Below, piece after piece: positions 61-64,000 of a DNA stretch of 64,000 bases. The notes below the pieces were generated by a model that saw only the letters and a list, made by a program, of their open reading frames with translations, did no database searches and was not told the DNA's origin. Each line of letters opens with the position of its first letter. The first letter of the stretch is position 1. Made by a program: the position numbers and the translations under genes. Source of the stretch: Cenarchaeum sp. (GTDB lineage Archaea; Thermoproteota; Nitrososphaeria; Nitrososphaerales; Nitrosopumilaceae); the NCBI GenBank assembly GCA_963692915.1, contig OY843584.1, forward strand, positions 256,001-320,000, read 5' to 3'.

Positions 61-110
61 GCCCACGCGTGCGCAAAACACAAATTTATCTATATTGGGC
101 ACGCCGCTTC

Positions 111-1448
111 ATGGGCCTCTTTGGCACCAACGGCGTGCGCGGGATTCTCGGCGAGGGCCTGACCCTGGGCGATATCCACGATATCGCCATGTCGATGGCG
201 ACCCACATCGGGCGCGGCCCTGTCCTAGTTGGCCGTGACGGGCGCGACACGAGCGGGCCCATATCCTCGATGGTCCTCTCGTCTCTTCGCTATGCGGGCA
301 TTGCGTGCGCCGATGCCGGCCTTGTCCCGACGCCATGCCTGCAGCTTGCAGTCAGGAACCTTGGATATGCCGGCGGGATCATGGCAACTGCGTCACACAA
401 CCCGCCCGAGTATGGCGGGCTAAAGCTGGTCTGGCATGACGGCATAGAGGCCTCACGCGATGACGAGGCCGCCGTTGAGCGCATCTATCGCGCGCGCTCA
501 TGGCGTGCGGCCTCGACATGGGGTGCTGCGTCTGTCGAGGGTCGCGCGCTTGAGACATACCGGCGCGGCATCGCGTCGATGGTCGACACTGCGGCGATCG
601 CGCGCTCTGGACTGCGCATTGCGCTCGACCTTGGAAACGGCGCACAGGCAGCCGCCGCCAGGGACGTGCTGTCTGGCCTGTGTGACAATGTGGCCTGCGT
701 CAATGATGAGATTGACCCAAACTTTTCTGGGCGCGGTCCGGAACCGCGACCTGACAACCTGTCGTCCCTGTCAGATGCGGTTCGCGACTCTGGTGCTGAC
801 ATTGGAGTGGCGTTTGACGGGGACGGTGACCGAAGCATGATGTGCGACGAGCGCGGCAACATTCTAAGCGGTGACACGTCGGCACTCTTTCTCGTAACTC
901 ATCTCCTGCAACGCAACGAGTCATCTGAGATTGTCACACCGATAAACTCTGGTGACGCGATAGAGGAGATTGCCAAAAATTCCCACTCGCGCGTGATCCG
1001 AACCGGTGTCGGCAGCGTGACAGTCTCGCGCGAGATGGCACGCCGCGGCGCACTCGCCGGCTTTGAGGAGAATGGCGGATTCATGTACGGTCCACACCTT
1101 CCGGTTCGCGACGGCTGCATGGCCGCAGCACTTGCGCTCGAGGCCCTCGCCGAGTCAGCACCACTCTCCTCGGCAGTCGCTGCGCTCCCAAAGTCGTTCA
1201 CCGCCAAGACGAGCGTGCGCTGTCCACCGGATCGCGCAGGGTCGGCACTTGCGGCCATCAAGGCTGCGCACCCCGATGCGGACACGCGCGACGGCGTAAA
1301 GGTTCGCCTGGGCCACCGACGCTGGGTCATGGCACGCCGCAGCGGAACCGAGCCCATCGTGCGCATATACGCCGAGTCTGACTCGTCATCTGGCCTCGAG
1401 GAGCTCCTAGCTAGGTACTCGGCAATGGTTGCTGACTCGCTCGGATAG
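111..1448 (+). CDS. glmM: phosphoglucosamine mutase / phosphohexomutase
   Basis: LFGTNGVRG N-terminus, TASHNP phosphoserine loop, FDGDGDR metal loop, GFEENGG, RRSGTEP. Confidence 0.9.
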   Translation: MGLFGTNGVRGILGEGLTLGDIHDIAMSMATHIGRGPVLVGRDGRDTSGPISSMVLSSLRYAGIACADAGLVPTPCLQLAVRNLGYAGGIMATASHNPPEYGGLKLVWHDGIEASRDDEAAVERIYRARSWRAASTWGAASVEGRALETYRRGIASMVDTAAIARSGLRIALDLGNGAQAAAARDVLSGLCDNVACVNDEIDPNFSGRGPEPRPDNLSSLSDAVRDSGADIGVAFDGDGDRSMMCDERGNILSGDTSALFLVTHLLQRNESSEIVTPINSGDAIEEIAKNSHSRVIRTGVGSVTVSREMARRGALAGFEENGGFMYGPHLPVRDGCMAAALALEALAESAPLSSAVAALPKSFTAKTSVRCPPDRAGSALAAIKAAHPDADTRDGVKVRLGHRRWVMARRSGTEPIVRIYAESDSSSGLEELLARYSAMVADSLG

Positions 1449-1587
1449 TGGCCGCCACAGTCGACGGGGTCGGCTGGTGGGGATGCGACTTTTGGGGCTC
1501 GCACGTGCCCTGTCGCATGGCGTGCTGCGCCTCCGGAATGCGCCTGAATGGGAATAAAGGGTTAAATGATCTGCTGATGCCCTCGTG

Positions 1588-1730
1588 CCTAGGCAGGACG
1601 TATACAGTTACCCCTGCTTAGGGTTCGGCAGCCCCGCGTTGGGGGGGCTGTCCTACCTGCTCATATCAGGTGGATTTGTGAGCTCCTCGGGTCTCTCCGG
1701 GGCGCATGGCCAACTATGACCCAGCCAACA
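1588..1730 (+). ncRNA. candidate structured non-coding RNA or leader upstream of rpl7ae
   Basis: No ORF. Flanked by TATA-like boxes (ggttaaat ~1560, ttttaa ~1732). Nested stems aggcaggac/gtcctacct, cagcccc/ggggctg, acctg/caggt. Family not recognised. Confidence 0.35.
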
Positions 1731-1767
1731 CTTTTAACCCCTCTAGCGCGCCCGTGCGCTCGGTAAA

Positions 1768-2154
1768 ATGGCAAAGTCATACTATGTCAAGTTCGAAACG
1801 CCCTCAAACCTCGTGAGCCCAATCCTCGAGGCCGTAAAGGCATCGGCTCAGACGGGCAAGGTCAAAAAGGGCACCAACGAGGTCACAAAGGCCATCGAGC
1901 GCGGCCAGAGCAAGCTCGTCATAGTCGCCGAGGACGTCGAGCCCCCAGAGGTCGTCGCGCACCTCCCGATACTCTGCGAGGAGCAGGGCGCGCACTATGC
2001 GTTCGTGCCCTCAAAGCAGGATCTTGGCAAGGCCCTCGGCATAGACATCATCGCAGCCGCTGCGGCAATAATCGATCCGGGCGAGTCAAAGCAGATAGTC
2101 GAGCAGGTCATAGAGTCAATCACTGGCCTAAAGGGCGGCAGTGATTCCAAATGA
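1768..2154 (+). CDS. rpl7ae: 50S ribosomal protein L7Ae
   Basis: [14 protein letters not shown]...[15 protein letters not shown]-type signature. Confidence 0.97.
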
Positions 2155-2372
2155 AGGCAGTCACCTCCACTGATGACTCGATAACTCCAGCAGAGGTGAT
2201 CCAGATCGTGGGCCGGACCGGCATCGCCGGCGAGGTCATACAGGTTCGCGTAAAGATACTTGGCGGGAACGACCAGGGTCGCATTCTCACGCGCAACATA
2301 AAGGGGTCTGTGCGCATGGGCGACACGCTCATGCTGCGCGAGACAGAGCGCGAGGCCAAGAAGATAAAGTAG
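2151..2372 (+). CDS. rps28e: 30S ribosomal protein S28e
   Basis: [17 protein letters not shown]...[11 protein letters not shown]...ETEREA; conserved operon position. Confidence 0.96.
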
Positions 2373-2376
2373 GTGA

Positions 2377-2583
2377 ATGCCGTTGAGCCTTCTAGTCAAG
2401 CCATGCAGCTTTTGCAACCGTCCGGTGGCCAAGGGGTCAGGAACGATGCTCGTAAAGAATGACGGGACTGTCCTGTGGCTCTGCTCCTCAAAATGCCGCA
2501 AGAACATGCTTGTGCTAAAGCGTGATCCTCGCAAGCTAAAGTGGACAAAAAAGTACGTAAAGGGAGGGATACGCCGTAGTTGA
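2377..2583 (+). CDS. rpl24e: 50S ribosomal protein L24e
   Basis: CSFC...GSGTMLV...CSSKC...PRKLKWT. Confidence 0.96.
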   Translation: MPLSLLVKPCSFCNRPVAKGSGTMLVKNDGTVLWLCSSKCRKNMLVLKRDPRKLKWTKKYVKGGIRRS

Positions 2584-2984
2584 GCAGCGGGCGCACGCTC
2601 ATTGTGATAAAGCCTGATGGAGTCAAGAGGGGACTAGTCGGCAGAGTGCTGGCGCGCTTTGAGCAAAAGGGCTTTGCGATTGCCGAGCTTCGCATGCTCC
2701 AGTTTTCAGAAGACCAGGCAAAAGAGTTCTATTCACCGCACAGCTCAAAGCACTTTTTTGGCGAGCTCGTGTCGTTTGTGACGTCGGGCCGCGTTGTGGC
2801 GGCAATACTCGAGGGCAACGACGCCATAGCGGCGACGCGCCTCATGATCGGCGCGACAAAGTCATCTGAGGCGGCCCCCGGCTCGGTCAGGGGCGACTTT
2901 GGCCTCGGCTTTACTGATAATATCATACACGCCTCGGATTCAGAGCCGAGCTTTGACAGAGAGTCTCGTGTGGTGTTTGGGTGA
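2580..2984 (+). CDS. ndk: nucleoside diphosphate kinase
   Basis: [23 protein letters not shown] catalytic His motif. Confidence 0.97.
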
Positions 2985-2990
2985 TCGGCC

Positions 2991-4772
2991 ATGCGCGTTC
3001 GGCAGCCAATCGTGGCCGTCCTTGGCCATGTAGACTCGGGCAAGACGTCCCTGCTTGACACGGTTCGCGGCACGGGCGTGCAGGGCCGCGAGGCCGGCGG
3101 CATCACGCAGCACATAGGCGCGAGCTTTTTGCCGGCCGAGACGCTTCGCGAGTCATGCGGCTCGCTGTATGGCCGGCTAGAGTCATCTGACTTTCAGGTG
3201 CCCGGCCTGCTCGTCATCGACACGCCGGGCCACGAGGTCTTTCGCAACCTGCGCACGCGCGGGGGCTCGGCTGCTGACATTGCGATCCTCGTAGTGGACG
3301 CCAACAAGGGCTTTCAGATGCAGACCAATGAGAGCCTCGACATACTGCGCAGGCGCGGCGTGCCCTTTGTGGTCGCGCTAAACAAGGTAGACGCGCTAGG
3401 CGGATGGCGAAACACAGAGACCGAGTCGATAACCGAGTCGCTAAAGGCACAGGGCGAGTCGATGCGCGCGACGCTTGATGAAAAGATATACGCAGTAGTC
3501 GGCTCGCTCTCGGTGCTGGGATACGAGTCAGAAGCGTTCTGGCGCGTCGGGGACTTTAAGCGGCAGGTCGCCATAGTTCCGGTCTCGGCGCGCACGCGAG
3601 TCGGCATACCGGAGCTCCTCACGGTTCTCGTGGGCCTTGCGCAACAGTACCTCCAAAAGCGCCTCGAGCAGTCATCAAAAGAGTCCCATGGGATCGTCCT
3701 TGAGGTCAATGACGAGCCCGGCCTCGGCGAGACGGCCAACGTCATGCTAATTGACGGCTCGCTTGGAATGGGCGACACGGTAATTGCCGCGACGCGCGAC
3801 TCGGCCATATCCACGCGCCCGCGCGCAATACTCCTGCCGAAACCGCTCGACGAGATGCGCGACCCGCGCGACCGCTTTCTTCCAGTCGAGCGAGTCGATG
3901 CCGCTGCCGGAGTAAAGATAGCCTCACCCGGACTTGCCGGCGTCCTGCCGGGCAGCACAATGTATGTTGCATCTGATGACGCCGCAATTGAGCGGCACAA
4001 GTCAGCCATCATCTCGGAGATAGGCTCGGTCTTTATCGACACAAAGACCACTGGCGTGATTGTAAAGTGCGACACGATAGGCTCCCTTGAGGCGCTGACT
4101 GAGATGATCTCCTCGGGCGCCACGGCAGTATCCAAGGCAGACATTGGGGCAGTCACAAAGCGCGATGTCGCCGAGGCCCGCGCGATCAAGGAGCGCGACA
4201 GGCACCTTGGCGTCATACTCGCGTTCAACGTCAAGGTTCTGCCTGATGCGCGCGAGGAGGCCGCAGTCCACCATGTGCGCATATTTGAGAACCGCGTGAT
4301 ATACGAGCTAGTCGACTCGTACACGCGGTGGGTCGGCGAGGACTCGGCCAACATTGAGGATGCGATATTCTCCGAGATCACGCCAATCTCGCGCTTTACG
4401 TTCCTTGAAGGGTGCGCGTTTCGCAACAGCGGACCGGCCGTCTTTGGTGTGCGCGTCGATGTCGGCACGCTGCGCCAAAAGGTCCAGTTTATGGATCCCA
4501 CGGGGAGGCGCGTGGGCACGATACACCAGCTCCAGCGCGACAAAAAGCCCGTGGATTCGGCGCGCGCCGGCGAGGAGCTCGCATGCTCGGTCAATGGCGT
4601 GACTATCGGGCGGCAGCTCATAGAGGGCACGACATACTATACGCTGCCGACATCCTCTGAGGCAAAAAAGCTCCTCGCTGCATTCCTGCACCGCCTGTCG
4701 AGTGACGAAAAGACCGCACTCAACGAGGTCGTCGAGGCGCAGCGCGCGCGTGATGCAGCATACGCGTACTAG
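2991..4772 (+). CDS. infB: translation initiation factor aIF5B (IF-2)
   Basis: [28 protein letters not shown] motifs. Confidence 0.97.
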
Positions 4773-18808: not shown

Positions 18809-21562
18809 CTAACCATTCACAATATCATCTAAATACTCATGCAGGCTATCTCGTACCTCTCCTTCAGTTTTTTCATAAATTTCCTTCCATTCCCACCTTC
18901 CAAATCTTCCGTCCTCGCTTACAGCATCAGTCCACAGATTGGCAAATGTGGCTTTCATCTTGTTACGTTCATCTTCATACCCTTTTATTTCCAATATTAT
19001 GTGGGTTCCATTAACAAGAACTACTAGAAAGTCTGGAAAGTACTGTCTTGTTGTCCCATCTACATCTCTATAGTCAATTGTAAACCCCACAGCACTATTG
19101 TTGCGTATATATGAAACAACATTTGGATTATTGTCCATTGCTTTTGCCACACTTTTTTCCCAACTGCTATCAAAAGTTGACATAATTGTATGCGTTTTTT
19201 TGGTTTTTATTGCTTTATGTTTTGGCACGTGTCTATGACGTATATCGTGTGTGGATCTAGTCTGACAATACGGATCAAGTTCTATGTTACTTTGTTTAGA
19301 AATTCTGCTGTTGTTTACTATTATTCGCCAAATGTGACGCACTATTGAACCCATATTGCATATGAGCAGACGTTTTTCTTCACTGCTATCTTGTGGTTTT
19401 TCATACTGGATAATTTTGTTATCTAGCGCTTCTCTTACAAGCACAGTAATGTGAGGAAATAATGTATGATCTTCTCCTTCAAACAATTCACGTTCTGTCT
19501 CGTATATTCTTGCAGCGGCTTCAAATATTATTGACTGCATTCTCACATTTTCATAATTTCCCTTAAACGGTATGTCTCCCGCTTTGCCAATAACCCTTTT
19601 TTGATCAATATCGACATTAAAAATTTCTGTCGGCGCTGTATTATTTGATATTGTTATGTGTTTTTCACCATTCCAATCGATTGGTTGGATGATCTTGGTT
19701 GTCCTTTTTGTAATACTGCCGATCACATTGGGCCACTCTATGGAATATTTTTTACGAGTAGGGTCGGGCGCAATCTCTATTAATAATATGGGGTCTACTG
19801 GTTCGCCTTTACCCTCTAGCGGCATTATCTGAAATGGGACACCTATCACAGTCACACGTTCTTCTGGAAACATGCCTTCTTCGTCTATTTCATATGACAC
19901 TCTTCTAAGCCCTCGTCCAATTACCTGTTCACATAATAACTGTGAATCAAATGCACGTAACCCCAGTATGTGTTGCACGTTCTTTGCGTCCCATCCTTCT
20001 GACAACATGTTGACTGATGTGATGTTGTTGACTAGAGCACCTGCTTCACCGTGCTTTCCCACTGTATTTATTTTTTGACGTAGGATCTCTGCATATTTCT
20101 TTTTATTGATTTCCCCATTTGTATCTGTGGGGATTTCTAACTGCTCTGCTATTTTTAGTGCTTTTATTGCCTCACTATCCATATGTATGGCAGTTTTCTT
20201 ATCATATATGTCTGTTCCAAATTTACCATTTTGTAATTCCGAGAACACACGTTCAGCCGTGTGCGTGTTATTACATATCGTTATGAATACTGGGGGTGCC
20301 GACCAGCCAATTTTTGATTTAGAATGTTTTATCCAATTTGTATGCTGTTTGTGCCATTCTGCTGCTAGCCGAGCATATTCTTTTCTGACCTGATCGGGAA
20401 GTGCAGATAGTTTCCCATTTTTTGGCTTGCTTTTATTGAGATCGCGTTCACATATTCGATACACTGATTCAGTTTTTGGGTTATTGCTGAATGGAACCAT
20501 GCCTGATCCGGGTTCTATGACGCCTCCTATCACAGGAGTTTTTACCAAGCCTGATTCTATGGCATCCATGAATCCAAAATCTGAAATTATCCATCCGAAC
20601 ACTCTGAACTTTGGATTTGGCCTAAATGGTGTTGCGCTAAAGTCATGACATCGTAAAATTCCTCCCGCGTCGTGTATCTCATCAAGTCCCTGCATCCATT
20701 TTGCGTCGTCCCCACCAATGTCTCGCCATGCGTGATGCCCTTCATCATTTATGACCAGTATTTTGCCTTCATATTCAAATCCTAAAATGCGTGTCGCAAA
20801 TGCTTTTGATGTTTCACGTCCTTTTTTTGCATATACCACTTGTTTACCAGTATCGTCTTGCAGCTTAAATTTGTGCCAATTGCATATTGCAATTTTCATT
20901 TCAGATAGGGTGCCACGATATCTATTGGGAATTATGTCAAATTCTTCATATATCTCATTTCGGAGTGTTTGAAGCCGTTCATATATTGTTAAATTTGGGG
21001 CGATTACTAAAAATTTGTTTGTAAATCTTGGATCCTTTGAGTTTTGCCAATAATTTATTGTTTGCCAGGCAATTAACATTCCCATCACGACTGTTTTGCC
21101 GGTTCCTGTGGCCATCTTCGAACACCACCGTTCAAACTCACCACCATCTCCTAAACGAAGCTTTTTTCGCTCGTCATCGGTGGCAATCTCTGCGAGCCAA
21201 ATTATTGTCTCTATTGCTTCAATTTGGCACCAGAAAAACTTCATATCTCGATTTCGCTGATTTTCATTACTAGTCCAATATTCTAACAACCGTCGTGTAG
21301 CTACTGTCGTTCCGCTATATCGAAATGCTCCGTTTTTTCCATTTCTCCACGATGATACTTTTTGGCGTATGTGGTTGACTTGTTCTAATTCTACAAATGT
21401 GATCTCCTGAGAGCGTTTCTTACTGCCGGCTTTCATCCGTACATATCCTGCATTCCGTCGGATTGGTTTTTGTTCATATTGTCCATTTTTTAACATAGCC
21501 CAATGTTTATTGGGCTCAACAAATGGACTGCAGATTACCATTCTATCTATCATTATATTCAC
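18809..21562 (-). CDS. res: Type III restriction enzyme Res subunit (SF2 helicase plus PD-(D/E)xK nuclease)
   Basis: KMATGTGKT, INDEGHH, SATP, LSEGWD, QVIGRGLR, C-terminal YFPDFLV...ILEIKG; GTGA overlap with the mod stop; AT-rich. Confidence 0.92.
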   Translation of the reverse strand: MNIMIDRMVICSPFVEPNKHWAMLKNGQYEQKPIRRNAGYVRMKAGSKKRSQEITFVELEQVNHIRQKVSSWRNGKNGAFRYSGTTVATRRLLEYWTSNENQRNRDMKFFWCQIEAIETIIWLAEIATDDERKKLRLGDGGEFERWCSKMATGTGKTVVMGMLIAWQTINYWQNSKDPRFTNKFLVIAPNLTIYERLQTLRNEIYEEFDIIPNRYRGTLSEMKIAICNWHKFKLQDDTGKQVVYAKKGRETSKAFATRILGFEYEGKILVINDEGHHAWRDIGGDDAKWMQGLDEIHDAGGILRCHDFSATPFRPNPKFRVFGWIISDFGFMDAIESGLVKTPVIGGVIEPGSGMVPFSNNPKTESVYRICERDLNKSKPKNGKLSALPDQVRKEYARLAAEWHKQHTNWIKHSKSKIGWSAPPVFITICNNTHTAERVFSELQNGKFGTDIYDKKTAIHMDSEAIKALKIAEQLEIPTDTNGEINKKKYAEILRQKINTVGKHGEAGALVNNITSVNMLSEGWDAKNVQHILGLRAFDSQLLCEQVIGRGLRRVSYEIDEEGMFPEERVTVIGVPFQIMPLEGKGEPVDPILLIEIAPDPTRKKYSIEWPNVIGSITKRTTKIIQPIDWNGEKHITISNNTAPTEIFNVDIDQKRVIGKAGDIPFKGNYENVRMQSIIFEAAARIYETERELFEGEDHTLFPHITVLVREALDNKIIQYEKPQDSSEEKRLLICNMGSIVRHIWRIIVNNSRISKQSNIELDPYCQTRSTHDIRHRHVPKHKAIKTKKTHTIMSTFDSSWEKSVAKAMDNNPNVVSYIRNNSAVGFTIDYRDVDGTTRQYFPDFLVVLVNGTHIILEIKGYEDERNKMKATFANLWTDAVSEDGRFGRWEWKEIYEKTEGEVRDSLHEYLDDIVNG

Positions 21563-23970
21563 TTTATCGCTATTGCTCTTATCGTTTCTATCCCGCGATT
21601 GTCCATTATCTTTACTGCGATTTTTTGTCCACTGCCTGGTTTGAATCTTGGGGATTTTGTTGTTTGTAAAGAATTTAGTATCTCATCTGGAATTGTCACC
21701 TTCAAACTTTTTTGTATGTCTGTTAATTGCTCAATTCTGTCTTTTGATGACGTTGGATAAAATATTTGATTAGGAATAAAACTTCTCCCATCATAATCCG
21801 GATCAATGGCCCACATGATAATTTTATCTTGACCTCCGGATATCACTGACGGCCCCTCATTGGTCAAATTAAAATAATCAAAACCCATTACCTCTACGGC
21901 AATTTCTCCATTTTTATCTATTTTATCAACTTTGATATCTGGATTTCCAATGAGCCAAAATGGTTCACCGCTCGCTTTCTTACGAAGATCTAGCGTCATC
22001 AGGTCTGGATTTGTCTGAACTGTAGTTATCTTCATAGTTGTGTTCATCTTGTCAATAATCTCCTTTGCCACTGTGTCTATGTGGAACGCTGCAAATATGA
22101 GTATATCGGGTTTGGGCTGAAAATGCTCTGCTTCGTTTATGGCACGTTCAACTTGGTGCCTGTTGAGAGCAGCTGTTTCAGGCCCAAACGAAACTAACAC
22201 TCTCTTGCCGTCGTTTGTAAATGCCTCTGCGTGTATCCACCGTGTTGCCTCGTGTGGTATTACTGAACTAAATTCTAGTCGTTTGTTTTCTGGAAGCCGA
22301 ATTCCATTGTGCTCTAGCTCATCACGTAGTATCTGCTGACTTACCACCCATTCATCTTTATTGACTTTATTATCTTTATGAAGTTCATCAATTGATAGTG
22401 CTGAAAGAGCTGGTAACGCCTCTACTGTGAATGGGCCTGTTACTCGTATTTTTTTTGATTCACACACTAATCTATCGACTAATTCTATCTTTGTTGGTGA
22501 TGAGTTGTTCGCTAGCGCAGAAAGGCTTAATTTATCTGCGTATTCACATTCGATTCCATTTGAAACATGTGGACCTTTTAACTTATAGTATCTATATGTT
22601 GCGGTGATCAAACGTTTTCTAGCGATCGCAATTGCGATACGTGATGTATCGCAGGTTATCCACCTTCGTCCAATTTTTTCGGCGACTATTGCTGTGGTTC
22701 CTGAACCGCATGTTGGGTCTAATACCAAATCTCCAGGATCTGTGCTCATATCCATACATCGTCTGATTACTTGTTCTGATGTTTGTACCACATACTTCTT
22801 GCCAGATGTCACGTTGAATGTATCGTGCCACATATTTGGAATTTCTGTGTATGGAAAATCATCGTAATAGCGGATATATGCTAATGACTTGCCCGATCTT
22901 TCTACGCGGTTCTGGATTATGAGATTTTCCATTCCGGCTTGTGTTACTTTCCAACTAACTTTTGGTTCATATTTTTGTTTTTCAAACCTCACTGAAAATG
23001 TTTGCCCTTCTCTAAAACTACTGTGTTCTAATCCAAAAGAAGAAGTAATCACTTTTGCATCTTTATATTTGTGTTCATAATCGTCTTTTGTCACCCTGAC
23101 TCTCTTTATGGTCTTATCTTCATCTACTATTTCGATTCTTTCACGTGATTTGTTGCTAAATGGTTCTCTTTTCTCATATAGCTTGTGATATTTCATTTGT
23201 TGCTTACATTTCGCATACCATATTATATAATCGCTGATTATGGGCATATGTGCTGCTTGTGAATTTCCTGTAGTTCTGAACGATATTATGGAAACATAGT
23301 TCTCTCCTCCAAAAACTTCATTTAATATTGCTTGTACCCAGCCTAGGTTTGTGTCAGAAATCTGAATGAATATAGATCCGCTATCTGCTAAGAGTTCGTG
23401 TGCTATTTTTACACGATCTCTCAAATATGTTAAAAATGAATGTGTTCCAAGCTCCCATGTGTCTCTAAATGCCTTGATGGTTTCTGGTTCGTGGGACAGA
23501 TCTTTTGCTTTATCGGTTTCATTATTTGTTGTATTGTTGATCGTTGGTTGCCAATTACTTGAGTAATTTATTCCGTACGGAGGATCAAAATATATCATCT
23601 GAACTTTTTGGTACATGTGTTCTTTTTTTAACAGTGAGTTCATAACTAGGAGTGAATCTCCGGCAACGAGTCTATTTGACCAGTTTCTTTCAAATTTATA
23701 AAAATTACAAGCATCCGGCAATGTGATTTTTTTATCGTCGTCAAAAAATGGATCAAATGATGCGCAATCTGACAGCATTCGATTTATTAAAATGCTGGGC
23801 TCTATTCTTTCGTGAACATTGAGGGACTGAACCGGAATTACAAATTTGGTATTTTTGTTGGTCCATTCCAATTTTGGATCTACGTGTGGATCATACGAAT
23901 ACTCTGTGGGTTGGGTTCTAAGTTTCTTTGTTCTTTCTACATTTGCTAAACCCACATCTGGTGTGTTCAC
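21559..23970 (-). CDS. mod: Type III R-M methyltransferase Mod subunit (likely true start ATG 24119/24122 is out of frame across G26)
   Basis: GDSLLVM, YFDPPYG (motif IV), LVLDPTCGSGTT (motif I), IAVKIMDNRG C-terminus. Frame stays open upstream of GTG 23970 through the homopolymer. Confidence 0.92.
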   Translation of the reverse strand: MNTPDVGLANVERTKKLRTQPTEYSYDPHVDPKLEWTNKNTKFVIPVQSLNVHERIEPSILINRMLSDCASFDPFFDDDKKITLPDACNFYKFERNWSNRLVAGDSLLVMNSLLKKEHMYQKVQMIYFDPPYGINYSSNWQPTINNTTNNETDKAKDLSHEPETIKAFRDTWELGTHSFLTYLRDRVKIAHELLADSGSIFIQISDTNLGWVQAILNEVFGGENYVSIISFRTTGNSQAAHMPIISDYIIWYAKCKQQMKYHKLYEKREPFSNKSRERIEIVDEDKTIKRVRVTKDDYEHKYKDAKVITSSFGLEHSSFREGQTFSVRFEKQKYEPKVSWKVTQAGMENLIIQNRVERSGKSLAYIRYYDDFPYTEIPNMWHDTFNVTSGKKYVVQTSEQVIRRCMDMSTDPGDLVLDPTCGSGTTAIVAEKIGRRWITCDTSRIAIAIARKRLITATYRYYKLKGPHVSNGIECEYADKLSLSALANNSSPTKIELVDRLVCESKKIRVTGPFTVEALPALSALSIDELHKDNKVNKDEWVVSQQILRDELEHNGIRLPENKRLEFSSVIPHEATRWIHAEAFTNDGKRVLVSFGPETAALNRHQVERAINEAEHFQPKPDILIFAAFHIDTVAKEIIDKMNTTMKITTVQTNPDLMTLDLRKKASGEPFWLIGNPDIKVDKIDKNGEIAVEVMGFDYFNLTNEGPSVISGGQDKIIMWAIDPDYDGRSFIPNQIFYPTSSKDRIEQLTDIQKSLKVTIPDEILNSLQTTKSPRFKPGSGQKIAVKIMDNRGIETIRAIAIK

Positions 23971-61151: not shown

Positions 61152-61433
61152 ATGGTTGACGAGACTGTGATCGCAGGATTGGCCACTATGGCGATCACGG
61201 TGATCGGTGTGCTTTCGTACATTGTGTTCGAGGCACGCAAGAGCTCTCGCAATGCTGAGGAGCGGCGCCGGGCCGAGCGGGAGGCAGACCGCAAGGAGAG
61301 GCGAGATAGGGATTTAATCGTGGATGCCAAGTTCGCAAATGTCTGCGATCGACTTACTAGACTTGAGACAAAGTTTGATGTTCGCTTTGGTGTGACGACT
61401 AGCACTGAGGGTCACCCTGGAGCCGGGGCATAG
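61152..61433 (+). CDS. small single-TM coiled-coil protein, copy 1
   Basis: N-terminal TM, then RRAEREADRKERRDRDLIVDAKFAN...LTRLE. Confidence 0.7.
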   Translation: MVDETVIAGLATMAITVIGVLSYIVFEARKSSRNAEERRRAEREADRKERRDRDLIVDAKFANVCDRLTRLETKFDVRFGVTTSTEGHPGAGA

Positions 61434-61814
61434 GTGCAGCCTGTCGGTATGGCGTTTCACCACCTTGGAATGCAGGTTGCGGACATATTCAGTATCGTTA
61501 GGCTGGATGCGAGCGACGCGTTTGTGATCACGGCGCTGTTCGTGATGTTATTTGCAATGCTCGGCATATTGGTGTGTCTTGCGGTCGCTACACGTCGTTT
61601 ACGCATTTCCGAGGAGCGGGATGCAAAGCGTTGGGCCGAGCGGGATGCAGACCGCAAGGAGCTCTCTCGAACATTGACGTAAGACCACCAGGACCAACGG
61701 GAGAAGGATCGGATAGTGAACGCTCGATTCGCGAACACCATTGAGATACTAGATTGCCTTGAGGGACACTTGATGCTTTTATTGAACGTGACACAGTGCA
61801 CCGGAAATCACTAG
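61434..61814 (+). pseudogene. small TM coiled-coil protein, copy 2, with in-frame TAA at 61680..61682
   Basis: RWAERDADRKE...LT*DHQDQREKDRIVNARFANTIEILDCLE; similarity to copy 1 continues past the stop. Confidence 0.65.
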
Positions 61815-61878
61815 ATACCGCGGCATAACTGTGGATTTTGGTGGAGTCAAATATACGTTTGGCAAGATTGTGATGTGT

Positions 61879-62430
61879 TTATTTTATAATTTGCTTAATG
61901 ATGTGGTGTTTTAAAGTTTCTAGCGTTTGTTTGGATTTTGCTCCAGTTATGACTATTTTTCCTGACGAAAATATTAAAAAACACGCATTTGACTCATCAA
62001 GACTAACGCGATACACTATTCCAGGGAATTTTTTAACGTCATAATTGGCACCGTCAAGGATTTTCACTGCTTGCATTTGATCAATTTTTTGCCCGAGATC
62101 TAAAACAGCTGTTGTGTTGACAATTTTTGTTGAATGAGCTTCATATTTCTTGCCCATGGCCTTGGAAATCTCATCTACAGCTGATAATATCCCACAATCG
62201 AATTTTCTGATGTCGCTAATCCCGGTACTGACAATCCTTCCGGTTTGAAAAAGAATGACAGTGCATTTGGGAACCACTGGTCTGTATATTACACCCGGAA
62301 ATAATTCTGGTTCGTATAACGTACTTGGTAAACGCATTGCGACAAGCTCTGTGTTAATTGGCCGTATATTGGCTGATGTCACTACATTCACAATTTTAAA
62401 TTGATGCTGCGATATTCCACTATTTCTCAA
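61879..62430 (-). CDS. tbp: divergent TATA-box-binding protein paralog
   Basis: Two TBP repeats: IVNVVTS..YEPELFPGVIYR..ILFQTGRIVSTG and IVNTTA..YDVKKFPGIVYR..LIFSSGKIVITGAKS. Confidence 0.9.
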   Translation of the reverse strand: MRNSGISQHQFKIVNVVTSANIRPINTELVAMRLPSTLYEPELFPGVIYRPVVPKCTVILFQTGRIVSTGISDIRKFDCGILSAVDEISKAMGKKYEAHSTKIVNTTAVLDLGQKIDQMQAVKILDGANYDVKKFPGIVYRVSLDESNACFLIFSSGKIVITGAKSKQTLETLKHHIIKQIIK

Positions 62431-63112
62431 TTTGTTCCCTGACCATTTTGCATAATTCTGGTATGTCTAAAATTCTTCGTACAAACTCTTTTTTATTATA
62501 AGTTGCATCTTTCTTAAAACGATTTAAAATCTCATCATAGTTTAATCTCAATAGTTCACAAAATTCTTGTCCAGTCATAGCTTGTTTTATGTCAATCCGG
62601 CCTTTGAATCCTGTGACAATTTCATCATGGGTCTTGGCCATGAAAGAACACACATAATCCTCAACTGTAAACGACATTCGAGTTCCCAACATATTTTTTA
62701 TTTCTGACAGGGACTCTACTTCACCCTGTGCTTTTTTTGTGTCAAAGTTCATTCCTAGTTTCAATTCGATCACTTTACACTCACGTGTTGATGTTAAAAA
62801 TACTATGAAGTCTGGTTCGGCTTTTTTGGCCCGTAATTTGCGTGATTTTTTTACAATTTTCTTTGAAAGCAGCATTACTTTGCCTTCGTATTTTTCTATT
62901 CCATTATCTGAGTTGCAGTTTTCAATGAATTCGTCAAAATCTTTTATTAATATGCCTGCCTTTTCACATTCTTCTAAAACTGTTTTTTCTAATGAGGTGC
63001 CCATCTTTATCATTGCTGAATGTGTATCTGTAATAAGTTGTCCCAGGCATCTGTTGGCAAATATGTGGATATAATTTCCGGTGCGTTTGCCAACTTCCAA
63101 TTTTACCATCAT
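62420..63112 (-). CDS. putative Type II restriction endonuclease (PD-(D/E)xK)
   Basis: EPDFIVF...VIELKLGMNFDTKK; ATGA overlap with the restored methyltransferase stop. Confidence 0.75.
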   Translation of the reverse strand: MMVKLEVGKRTGNYIHIFANRCLGQLITDTHSAMIKMGTSLEKTVLEECEKAGILIKDFDEFIENCNSDNGIEKYEGKVMLLSKKIVKKSRKLRAKKAEPDFIVFLTSTRECKVIELKLGMNFDTKKAQGEVESLSEIKNMLGTRMSFTVEDYVCSFMAKTHDEIVTGFKGRIDIKQAMTGQEFCELLRLNYDEILNRFKKDATYNKKEFVRRILDIPELCKMVREQIEK

Positions 63113-63934
63113 ATATCCTCCGTTTTAACCTTGACCACATCGCATCCCAGGAACGTGCGGTTTGTGTTAATGCAGGCACGTAAAACACTGTATCCTCCTG
63201 CAGCGGGGTCAACAATAACTCCCCCCCCCCCCTCCCGGGGTTATGGCCTCGATAAGGCGCTCTTGAAGCTTAATTGGTTTGCTGTGTGTGTGATTTTTAC
63301 TGTGGATTTTTTCTGACCAAACATCCCTTATGCCATGATCGCGCCATACGTCTTTTGCTTTCTTTGGCAGTTTTTGCAAAATAATTAGGTGCTCTGAACA
63401 CCGCCGTGTCCTATATCCCATGCCAATGCGCTGTTTGTCCCACGTTATCATGTCAACAATCTCAAATTCTAATCCCTTAATCCATGCTGATATCCCATTG
63501 CATAGGTGAAATTTATCCACCCATAAGAACAAATGGCCACTGGGAACAAGCACACGTTCAAGCTCCCACAAAAATGTCGATATGATTGACTCGTCCATCT
63601 GTGATAGTGATGCCCTTGCTCTCCCACGAGATTTTCCCTCATTCCCATACTTCATCTTGTCTAATATGCCCCTATACTGTGGATCCAAAAAAGCGGCATC
63701 AACCGTCTTGTCATCAAGCATGCGCAACATGTCCAACCCGTCCATTTTGTTTGTCTTGTTTAAGAGATGTCGAACTTTGTTCAGGCTTGTTTTATGTGGT
63801 TTTTGGCCAATCGTGCATCTAGTCCCAAATACAGTTTTTGGCGTGGGTTTTTGCATAGATTCATGCACATGTTTTGCGCGTCTTGGCCTTTTTTTTGGCT
63901 GTAGCTTTGACTTGAGTTTCATCCACCCTTTCAA
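63109..63934 (-). pseudogene. beta-class amino-DNA methyltransferase, frameshifted at G12 (phase-OFF allele or sequencing error)
   Basis: FLDPQY (motif IV), WDK, HSKP in the upstream frame. [11 protein letters not shown] (motif I)...FLGCD lies in another frame after the tract. Confidence 0.85.
63221..63232. repeat. C12 homopolymer (G12 on the methyltransferase coding strand)
   Basis: Direct count of 12 consecutive C. Confidence 0.95.
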
Positions 63935-64000
63935 CGGCCTACGCGATTCTCTGCATATTAATTCTTTCCAGCGGAATCGCCGGTATAATGGCCTGTTTTC

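Follow-up and report, generated by a model that had tools for sequence, protein, structure and literature searches.

TATA-binding protein (TBP) is regarded as a universal and highly constrained initiation factor, whose C-terminal lobe docks transcription factor B (TFB, TFIIB) in all archaea and eukaryotes, according to the available passages of Ravarani et al. (2020, PMC7221094). In the same passages, two glutamates of this lobe contact conserved Arg and Thr residues of TFB/TFIIB throughout archaea and eukaryotes, and bacterial TBP-lobe proteins are described as being without these TFB-contact residues. Passages of three further articles (PMC3597702, PMC3710099, PMC7641849) treat other TBP-fold domains. 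In the TOTE and TALON systems of bacteria, TBP proteins are accompanied by a TPR-OB/CSD protein and an effector or YprA helicase (available text of PMC12458937). No paper linking archaeal TBP paralogs to restriction-modification (R-M) or describing a lobe-reversed TBP clade was found by full-text searching, and these TOTE and TALON proteins were the closest published case. The controller (C) proteins of bacterial Type II R-M systems have a helix-turn-helix fold and an operator (C-box) ahead of their own gene, which is usually placed before that of the endonuclease. Here, we describe a TBP paralog encoded near the right end of a 64,000-nucleotide stretch of Cenarchaeum sp. DNA (GenBank assembly GCA_963692915.1, contig OY843584.1, positions 256,001 to 320,000 of the forward strand), which is called the window below. 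The paralog belongs to a clade with reversed conservation of the two stirrups, and its gene is the last one in a horizontally acquired Type II R-M cassette.

The TBP paralog and its clade

The gene and its two stirrups are located in the window as follows.

61879..62430, minus strand: TBP paralog, 183 amino acids (aa), TTG start; final gene of the cassette, its first 11 nucleotides (nt) overlapping the end of the endonuclease gene
62293..62316, minus strand: repeat-1 (N-lobe) stirrup YEPELFPG, residues 39-46; bears the two Glu found in the C lobe of canonical TBPs
62020..62043, minus strand: repeat-2 (C-lobe) stirrup YDVKKFPG, residues 130-137; Val and Lys in place of Pro and the second Glu

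The open reading frame (ORF) was intact and encoded a two-repeat TBP. The Pfam model TBP (PF00352) matched both repeats (E 1.5e-34). An AlphaFold2 model (33 relatives) had a mean pLDDT of 94.1 and a pTM of 0.86, and its top fold matches in the PDB were all TBPs (2z8u, 1cdw, 1mp9, 1ais, and others), with the highest TMq, 0.89, for 1cdw_A (rmsd 1.5). All ten matching TBP models of NCBIfam stayed below their cut-offs; the best, NF001593, reached 111.7 bits vs. a cut-off of 181. The TBP identity and both stirrup sequences had been proposed in an initial annotation made from the DNA letters, and they were borne out by these data. The intercalating phenylalanines F44, F61, F135, and F154 and the paired asparagines N15 and N105, also annotated as retained, were all found, each being invariant or at least 90% conserved among the 33 relatives. 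The C-terminal tail, TLKHHIIKQIIK, is basic as annotated, whereas the host TBP ends with the acidic HALLEEKNLMIY.

The annotation had further claimed that the stirrup asymmetry is reversed, and this claim was confirmed with one correction, which concerns repeat 2. The TFB-contact signature, an acidic pair (positions L3.2 and L3.4) together with Pro, has moved to the N lobe (Y-E-P-E-L-F) and is missing from the C lobe (Y-D-V-K-K-F). Repeat 2 has lost only Pro (now V132) and the second Glu (now K133), and its position L3.2 stays acidic (D131). A swap of whole repeats or a circular permutation was suggested by crossed alignments, in which repeat 1 of the paralog aligned with repeat 2 of most solved and NCBIfam TBPs and vice versa. 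It was rejected because the crossing comes from the stirrup alone and the remainder of each repeat is normally placed. Hidden Markov models of N- and C-repeats gave just -5.5 and +5.7 bits vs. approximately +/-20 in canonical TBPs, and with the 8-residue stirrups masked both repeats leaned N-like by approximately 3.6 bits.

The host genome (one contig of 1,644,826 bp, 59.4% GC, completeness 99.86%) encodes a sole other TBP at C1:729388-729903, with the stirrups YHPDQFPG and YEPEQFPG and 33% identity to the paralog. All 29 TBPs of the host family and order, some from genomes with two or more copies, were canonical, their stirrups reading Y/W-[HN]-P-x-x-F-P-G (repeat 1) and YEPEQFPG (repeat 2). 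The paralog did not group with them on the trees. The check set by the annotation, comparison with ordinary thaumarchaeal TBPs, set the paralog apart.

Exhaustive HMMER search returned 2974 proteins at E <= 0.001 and just four at E <= 1e-30. One of these four, the full-length homolog P0001, was 93% identical, with 12 substitutions past the start codon and none of them at a DNA-contact or stirrup Glu position; the others were at most 43% identical over the full length. P0126, a GC-rich fragment of 129 aa, was 54% identical. In a FastTree reconstruction of 118 TBPs, the paralog fell within a group of 34 rows (support 100). Under an IQ-TREE mixture model with 87 rows, the group comprised 45 rows (SH-aLRT 100), and TBPs of the host and its family formed a separate group of their own (support 100). 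When both stirrups were cut from the alignment, the 45 rows, with the paralog inside, still made up one side of a branch (SH-aLRT 100), so the clade does not result from the stirrup trait. Its nearest neighbours were P0125, P0272, and P0273, the first of which is named as a Nitrosopumilus sp. protein by one source.

Residues Y39, E40, and P41 were at least 90% conserved in the alignment of 33 rows, and the repeat-2 stirrup was variable. The 45 rows of the clade were compared with 286 canonical TBPs.

N lobe, both signature positions acidic: clade 30/45; canonical 38/286
C lobe, both signature positions acidic: clade 18/45; canonical 273/286
N-lobe position L3.2 occupied by Glu: clade 37/45; canonical 20/286
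Mean column entropy, N lobe / C lobe: clade 1.78 / 2.26; canonical 1.95 / 1.80

The reversal is a property of the whole clade: the repeat-1 stirrup is kept and that of repeat 2 drifts, which is the opposite of canonical TBPs. Judged by its sequences, the clade retains the TFB-contact signature on the other lobe.

Members of the clade were rare. With the clade profile, scores of members began at 195 bits and those of canonical TBPs did not exceed 184, the paralog itself reaching 213.7-214.7 bits. Among 400 sampled genomes of the host phylum, no clade member was found beyond the gene in the window, and none among 401 sampled genomes of the phylum that holds a Woesearchaeota record. The single 193-bit hit in the latter (L126/L127) was rejected as a canonical TBP beside MCM. 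A search of 400 sampled genomes of the host family with P0125 as the query did not reveal clade members, and 30 close relatives, 4 of them from the same genus, had no homolog of the paralog above 36% identity. On viral contigs, the paralog alone detected one locus (L012, 32% identity) and the clade alignment 26 loci, but none of the 27 reached the clade score; the best had 178.6 bits, and all those with two recognisable stirrups had the canonical orientation. Metagenomes scanned with a second alignment (A2) gave no relative. Plasmid and virus/phage collections held only haloarchaeal TBPs with 33-39% identity (80 plasmid and 3 virus records), and the ESM Atlas held generic TBP clusters only.

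A scan of public genome contigs gave six loci (L006-L011), of which L007 encodes a canonical TBP. L006, from a metagenome-assembled genome (MAG) labelled as bacterial, encodes a eukaryote-type TBP with YEPELFPG in the C lobe, and its contig is probably misbinned eukaryotic DNA. L008-L010, likewise in MAGs labelled as bacterial, are taken to be of eukaryote type by assumption. At L011 (8013-8636; Nitrosopumilaceae, approximately 62% GC), a related genome encodes a third TBP, which is divergent and acidic in both stirrups; the ORFs around it resemble HerA-type ATPases and primases by sequence, so that it is reminiscent of a mobile element.

Linkage to restriction genes and the island

A scan of metagenomes with the clade member P0395 gave 16 loci. 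At L110, where the TBP was 100% identical to P0395, the TBP gene is directly adjoined on one side by genes for an Eco57I-type methylase with a TaqI_C specificity domain and on the other by one for a ResIII/DEAD helicase. At L111 (91% identical to P0395), the gene of a 1201-aa Eco57I/MmeI-type IIG enzyme ends 4 nt ahead of the TBP gene. At L112, the TBP gene lies approximately 800 nt from that of a 1193-aa IIG enzyme, which is followed by an HKD-SNF2 helicase. All clade members with visible context adjoin restriction genes, namely three lineages at four loci (the window, L110, L111, and L112). The 18 control loci with canonical TBPs (L001, L022-L030, L113-L115, L117-L120, and L127) were drawn from the same scan and from the genomes. 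In none of them did the scanned neighbourhood contain a methylase or restriction gene; ordinary genes lay there, for example those of AMMECR1, LysRS, thermosome, H+-PPase, Trm5, ASCH, transaldolase, MCM, and tRNA endonuclease.

A separate observation was made on another metagenome contig (L123, 476-4722), where an EcoRV-type endonuclease and a D12 methylase are bracketed by two very divergent TBPs that fall outside the clade, and Dam-like and EVE-domain genes accompany them.

In the window, the TBP gene is located in an island of approximately 2.2 kb with 36-44% GC, which extends from approximately 61830 to the window end; the GC fraction on either side is approximately 0.6. The island contains three genes on the minus strand, in the order methylase, endonuclease, TBP. 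Its other features are as follows.

62420..63112, minus strand: Type II restriction endonuclease, 230 aa; PADLOC REase_II PDLC03487, E 8.4e-38
63109..63934, minus strand: Type II beta-class N4/N6 methyltransferase (methylase); PADLOC MTase_II PDLC03271, E 8.8e-76; Pfam N6_N4_Mtase
63221..63232, no strand assigned: C12 homopolymer (G12 on the coding strand) at the frameshift; length varies between public runs
61865..61866, no strand assigned: left edge of the island, 14 nt beyond the TBP stop; contigs of two runs depart from the reference exactly here
63935..64000, minus strand: non-coding, upstream of the methylase; contains AT-rich words that resemble TATA boxes; putative promoter

The endonuclease gene begins within the methylase stop (ATGA), and its last 11 nt are shared with the beginning of the TBP gene. 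Since the three genes share one strand and have overlapping ends, they were read as one operon. Residues 8-225 of the endonuclease aligned with positions 9-224 of the 227-position REase_II profile, i.e., over the full length, and a PD...ExK-like motif (EPDF...IELK) was read from the sequence; no Pfam hit was obtained for this protein. The methylase and endonuclease genes were separate, as in Type II R-M systems. The methylase frame was not intact, with the N-terminal part containing DPQY in one frame and the C-terminal part (VDPAAGG...) in another. Compared to the window, the C12 tract was two nucleotides shorter in run X4, three longer in X6, and equal in X1; the frame requires -1 or +2, so none of these lengths restores it. 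The variable tract could be either a phase-variable switch or an assembly artefact.

Among public runs, those of three studies had contigs with the island. A contig of X6 corresponded to L005:1500-4404, which covers the TBP and endonuclease genes together with most of the methylase gene, and differed from the window only in tract length. Contigs of X1 and X4 had loose ends at L005:2865, which is window position 61865. The right edge was placed just beyond the window end, at approximately C1:320000-320130, from the GC profile and from contig and loose ends near L005:5003-5131. Summed depth of the island vs. its flanks was 120 vs. 190-320 in X1 and 49 vs. approximately 100-3000 in X4, where depth summed over contigs is not a copy number. 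Runs X8 and X9 contained next to none of the words, which is not evidence of absence. The edge junction and the lower depth fit an insertion carried by only some strains. The cassette was acquired horizontally: its GC content is 36-44% vs. 59%, an alternative junction exists at its edge, its depth is low, and close relatives have no homolog above 36% identity.

No integrase, virus, TPR, OB, effector, or TFB gene was found within the island, and the three host TFB genes are all distant from it. Flanking att-like repeats were represented by short repeats at chance level only. An Rfam search of 11 kb around the island gave one distant tRNA and no RNA gene at the island edges.

Several further features of the same kind or the same neighbourhood were observed. 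In a low-GC genome of the same family (G190), a region (L136 6117-7494; C1:925116-926493) carries a homologous methylase-endonuclease pair, the endonuclease being 37% identical. This pair sits among transposase-like ORFs without a TBP gene, and a TFB gene lies approximately 1.8 kb upstream. The window has a second AT-rich island at 18809-23970 on the minus strand (35-41% GC) with a Type III R-M system and no TBP, inserted between a ribosomal-protein gene and an RNA polymerase Rpb3/RpoD-like gene.

21559-23970, minus strand: Type III Mod; PADLOC MTase_III, 1e-119
18809-21562, minus strand: Type III Res; ResIII, and REase_III at 4.2e-12

Next to the TBP island, at 61152-61682 on the plus strand, the same Arg/Glu-rich motif (RRAEREADRKE-like) recurs in two small neighbouring ORFs. 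Portions of this stretch are omitted or duplicated in X1 and X4 contigs, so it is variable between strains.

Proposed role and rival explanations

We tentatively favour, with a likelihood somewhat short of even, the reading that the paralog is a cassette-borne TATA-binding promoter factor which contacts TFB via its first repeat and controls expression of the endonuclease and methylase. Its gene would be an accessory of the acquired Type II R-M cassette (methylase, endonuclease, and TBP in one operon), and the rare, patchily distributed clade to which it belongs appears to travel with methylase-based defence genes. Because the fold and all DNA-contact residues are kept, the paralog probably still binds and bends TATA-like DNA. 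Since the Glu-Pro-Glu of repeat 1 is conserved, a TFB-like partner may still dock, from the other side, and host TFB would then use the acidic stirrup of the first repeat. Polarity of the archaeal initiation complex is set mainly by TFB on the B recognition element (BRE). A TBP with its docking loop in repeat 1 could then simply lie on the promoter the other way round, rotated by 180 degrees with respect to the order of its own sequence. Complex prediction for the paralog with the host TFB core (residues 170-357 of L128:712-1866) weighs neither way (score 0.01, mark 0.32). A flipped orientation, one of the options in the initial annotation, seems to fit better than an inability to recruit TFB, as the repeat-1 Y-E-P is at least 90% conserved across the clade. 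Serving as a promoter factor that belongs to the cassette, the paralog would set the timing and strength of endonuclease and methylase expression. Such a regulatory role fits the fact that the partner enzymes are varied (plain Type II, IIG, and IIG plus SNF2-HKD) and that the TBP is dispensable for a homologous pair.

Several points weigh against the promoter-factor reading. Binding of DNA and TFB is predicted from sequence and a structural model. The TBP gene is the last in the cassette, while bacterial C genes usually precede that of the endonuclease. The island is without a TFB gene, and the host TFB genes are remote. The methylase is frameshifted and no observed tract length restores the frame, which may mean that the cassette is inactive or in decay. 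The G190 pair is without a TBP, so these two enzymes do not require one. Nor is the flip universal: 18 of the 45 clade members keep the acidic pair in the C lobe, including the restriction-linked P0395 (YETEQFPG). Genomic context was seen for three lineages only out of the 45-row clade, and the TBP at L112, which is sister to P0136 (support 96) and falls in the clade by the tree, has a profile score of just 180.9 bits. The Fisher p-values of the linkage (1.4e-4 for four loci, 7.5e-4 for three lineages, and 4.5e-3 with nine controls) exaggerate its strength, as the controls are partly kin with shared synteny and many flanks span approximately 1.5 kb on each side.

Another explanation is that the protein acts in defence directly, as a DNA sensor or clamp that marks or bends incoming DNA which is AT-rich or unmodified, or blocks the promoters on it, alongside the restriction enzymes; such a role has been proposed for proteins with TBP domains in bacterial conflict systems. 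TBP-domain proteins are listed among the parts of bacterial TOTE and TALON conflict systems in the available text of PMC12458937, the TBP gene of L110 lies in a subunit-like position between the IIG methylase/specificity genes and the ResIII helicase, and the two TBPs of L123 flank an EcoRV-type pair with Dam-like and EVE genes. The partner systems are, however, mechanistically unrelated, which is a better fit for a regulator than for a subunit, and the island has no TPR, OB, or effector gene. In addition, the clade keeps the Glu-Pro-Glu signature that bacterial TBP-lobe proteins lose (PMC7221094, in the passages available). We consider a sensor or clamp unlikely. A similarly low likelihood is given to the main idea of the initial annotation, a repressor or decoy that occupies TATA boxes without initiation and so damps the cassette promoter or AT-rich foreign DNA. 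The C-lobe stirrup without Pro and the second Glu, the basic tail vs. the acidic one of the host TBP, and the AT-rich island itself agree with it. A pure blocker, however, needs no conserved stirrup, yet the repeat-1 Y-E-P is at least 90% conserved and the N lobe is the more constrained one. An acidic N-lobe stirrup also occurs in 38 of the 286 canonical TBPs, and by pseudo-symmetry a TFB-like contact there seems sterically plausible. For the silencer and decoy roles named in the annotation, no specific support was found.

The TBP gene could also be a hitch-hiking relic in a decaying cassette, carried along with no role in this host, as the frameshifted methylase with its variable homopolymer and the homologous R-M pair without TBP would allow. 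The intact ORF with its high-confidence model speaks against decay. So do the full-length P0001, 93% identical with none of its 12 substitutions at DNA-contact or stirrup Glu positions, the X6 contig that, from the TBP through the endonuclease and across most of the methylase, departs from the window in tract length only, and the purifying pattern across the clade. These data make a relic improbable. Least probable by far is a TBP derived from a virus or provirus and serving viral gene expression. Genomes of archaeal and giant viruses do carry TBP genes (3 records of haloarchaeal viruses and 26 IMG/VR loci), and the divergent TBP of L011 is found among primase-like and HerA-like ORFs identified by sequence. 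However, the island consists of three genes only, with no virus or integrase gene and no flanking att-like repeat, and 0 of the 27 viral-contig loci reached the clade score (178.6 bits at best), those with two stirrups being canonical in orientation.

Comparison with known systems

Our data suggest that archaeal mobile defence cassettes are able to bring along a basal transcription factor of their own. A broader proposition, which we regard as rather doubtful, is that archaeal R-M and defence cassettes do so repeatedly, with a TBP lineage that docks TFB through repeat 1, forms a mirror-oriented initiation complex, and gives the toxic endonuclease a private control independent of the host. If this were true, then together with the L123 genes it would turn proteins of the TBP fold into a general class of accessories for the defence systems of archaea. 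A natural lineage with reversed asymmetry would permit a direct test of whether TBP polarity matters when the pre-initiation complex is put together. The linkage to R-M genes points to an unstudied layer of control over the defence systems of archaea. It also points to a means by which mobile DNA, once in a new archaeal host, could ensure that it is transcribed or determine when. The cassette would supply a compact three-gene system for such studies.

The paralog shares with canonical archaeal TBPs (e.g., PDB 2z8u and 1ais) the two-repeat saddle, the four Phe, the central Asn pair, and a length of approximately 180 aa without extension. It differs from them in having the TFB-contact signature and the stronger constraint on repeat 1 and in its basic tail; canonical TBP is universal in archaea, whereas the paralog is accessory, island-borne, and rare. 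Like the TBP paralogs of haloarchaea, plasmids, and viruses, it is an extra TBP copy on mobile or accessory DNA. Those proteins are only 33-39% identical to it, and the 26 TBPs of viral contigs score below the range of the clade. TBPs of large viruses tend to come with their own TFIIB (PMC7221094, in the passages available), while the island has no TFB gene.

With the bacterial TOTE and TALON systems the cassette has in common a TBP-fold protein, which recurs in prokaryotic defence operons (PMC12458937, available text). It does not belong to these systems, as the other genes of the island are those of a methylase and a restriction endonuclease only, and the protein is an archaeal two-repeat TBP that, by its sequence, keeps the TFB-contact signature. 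The closest likeness in role is proposed with the C proteins of bacterial Type II systems, which, as is proposed here for the paralog, are small DNA-binding proteins in R-M operons of unrelated enzyme types and are dispensable for the enzymes. The paralog has the TBP fold and not a helix-turn-helix, so the likeness is one of role only. By this analogy, we propose that the paralog may be a functional archaeal counterpart of bacterial C proteins, from a different protein family.

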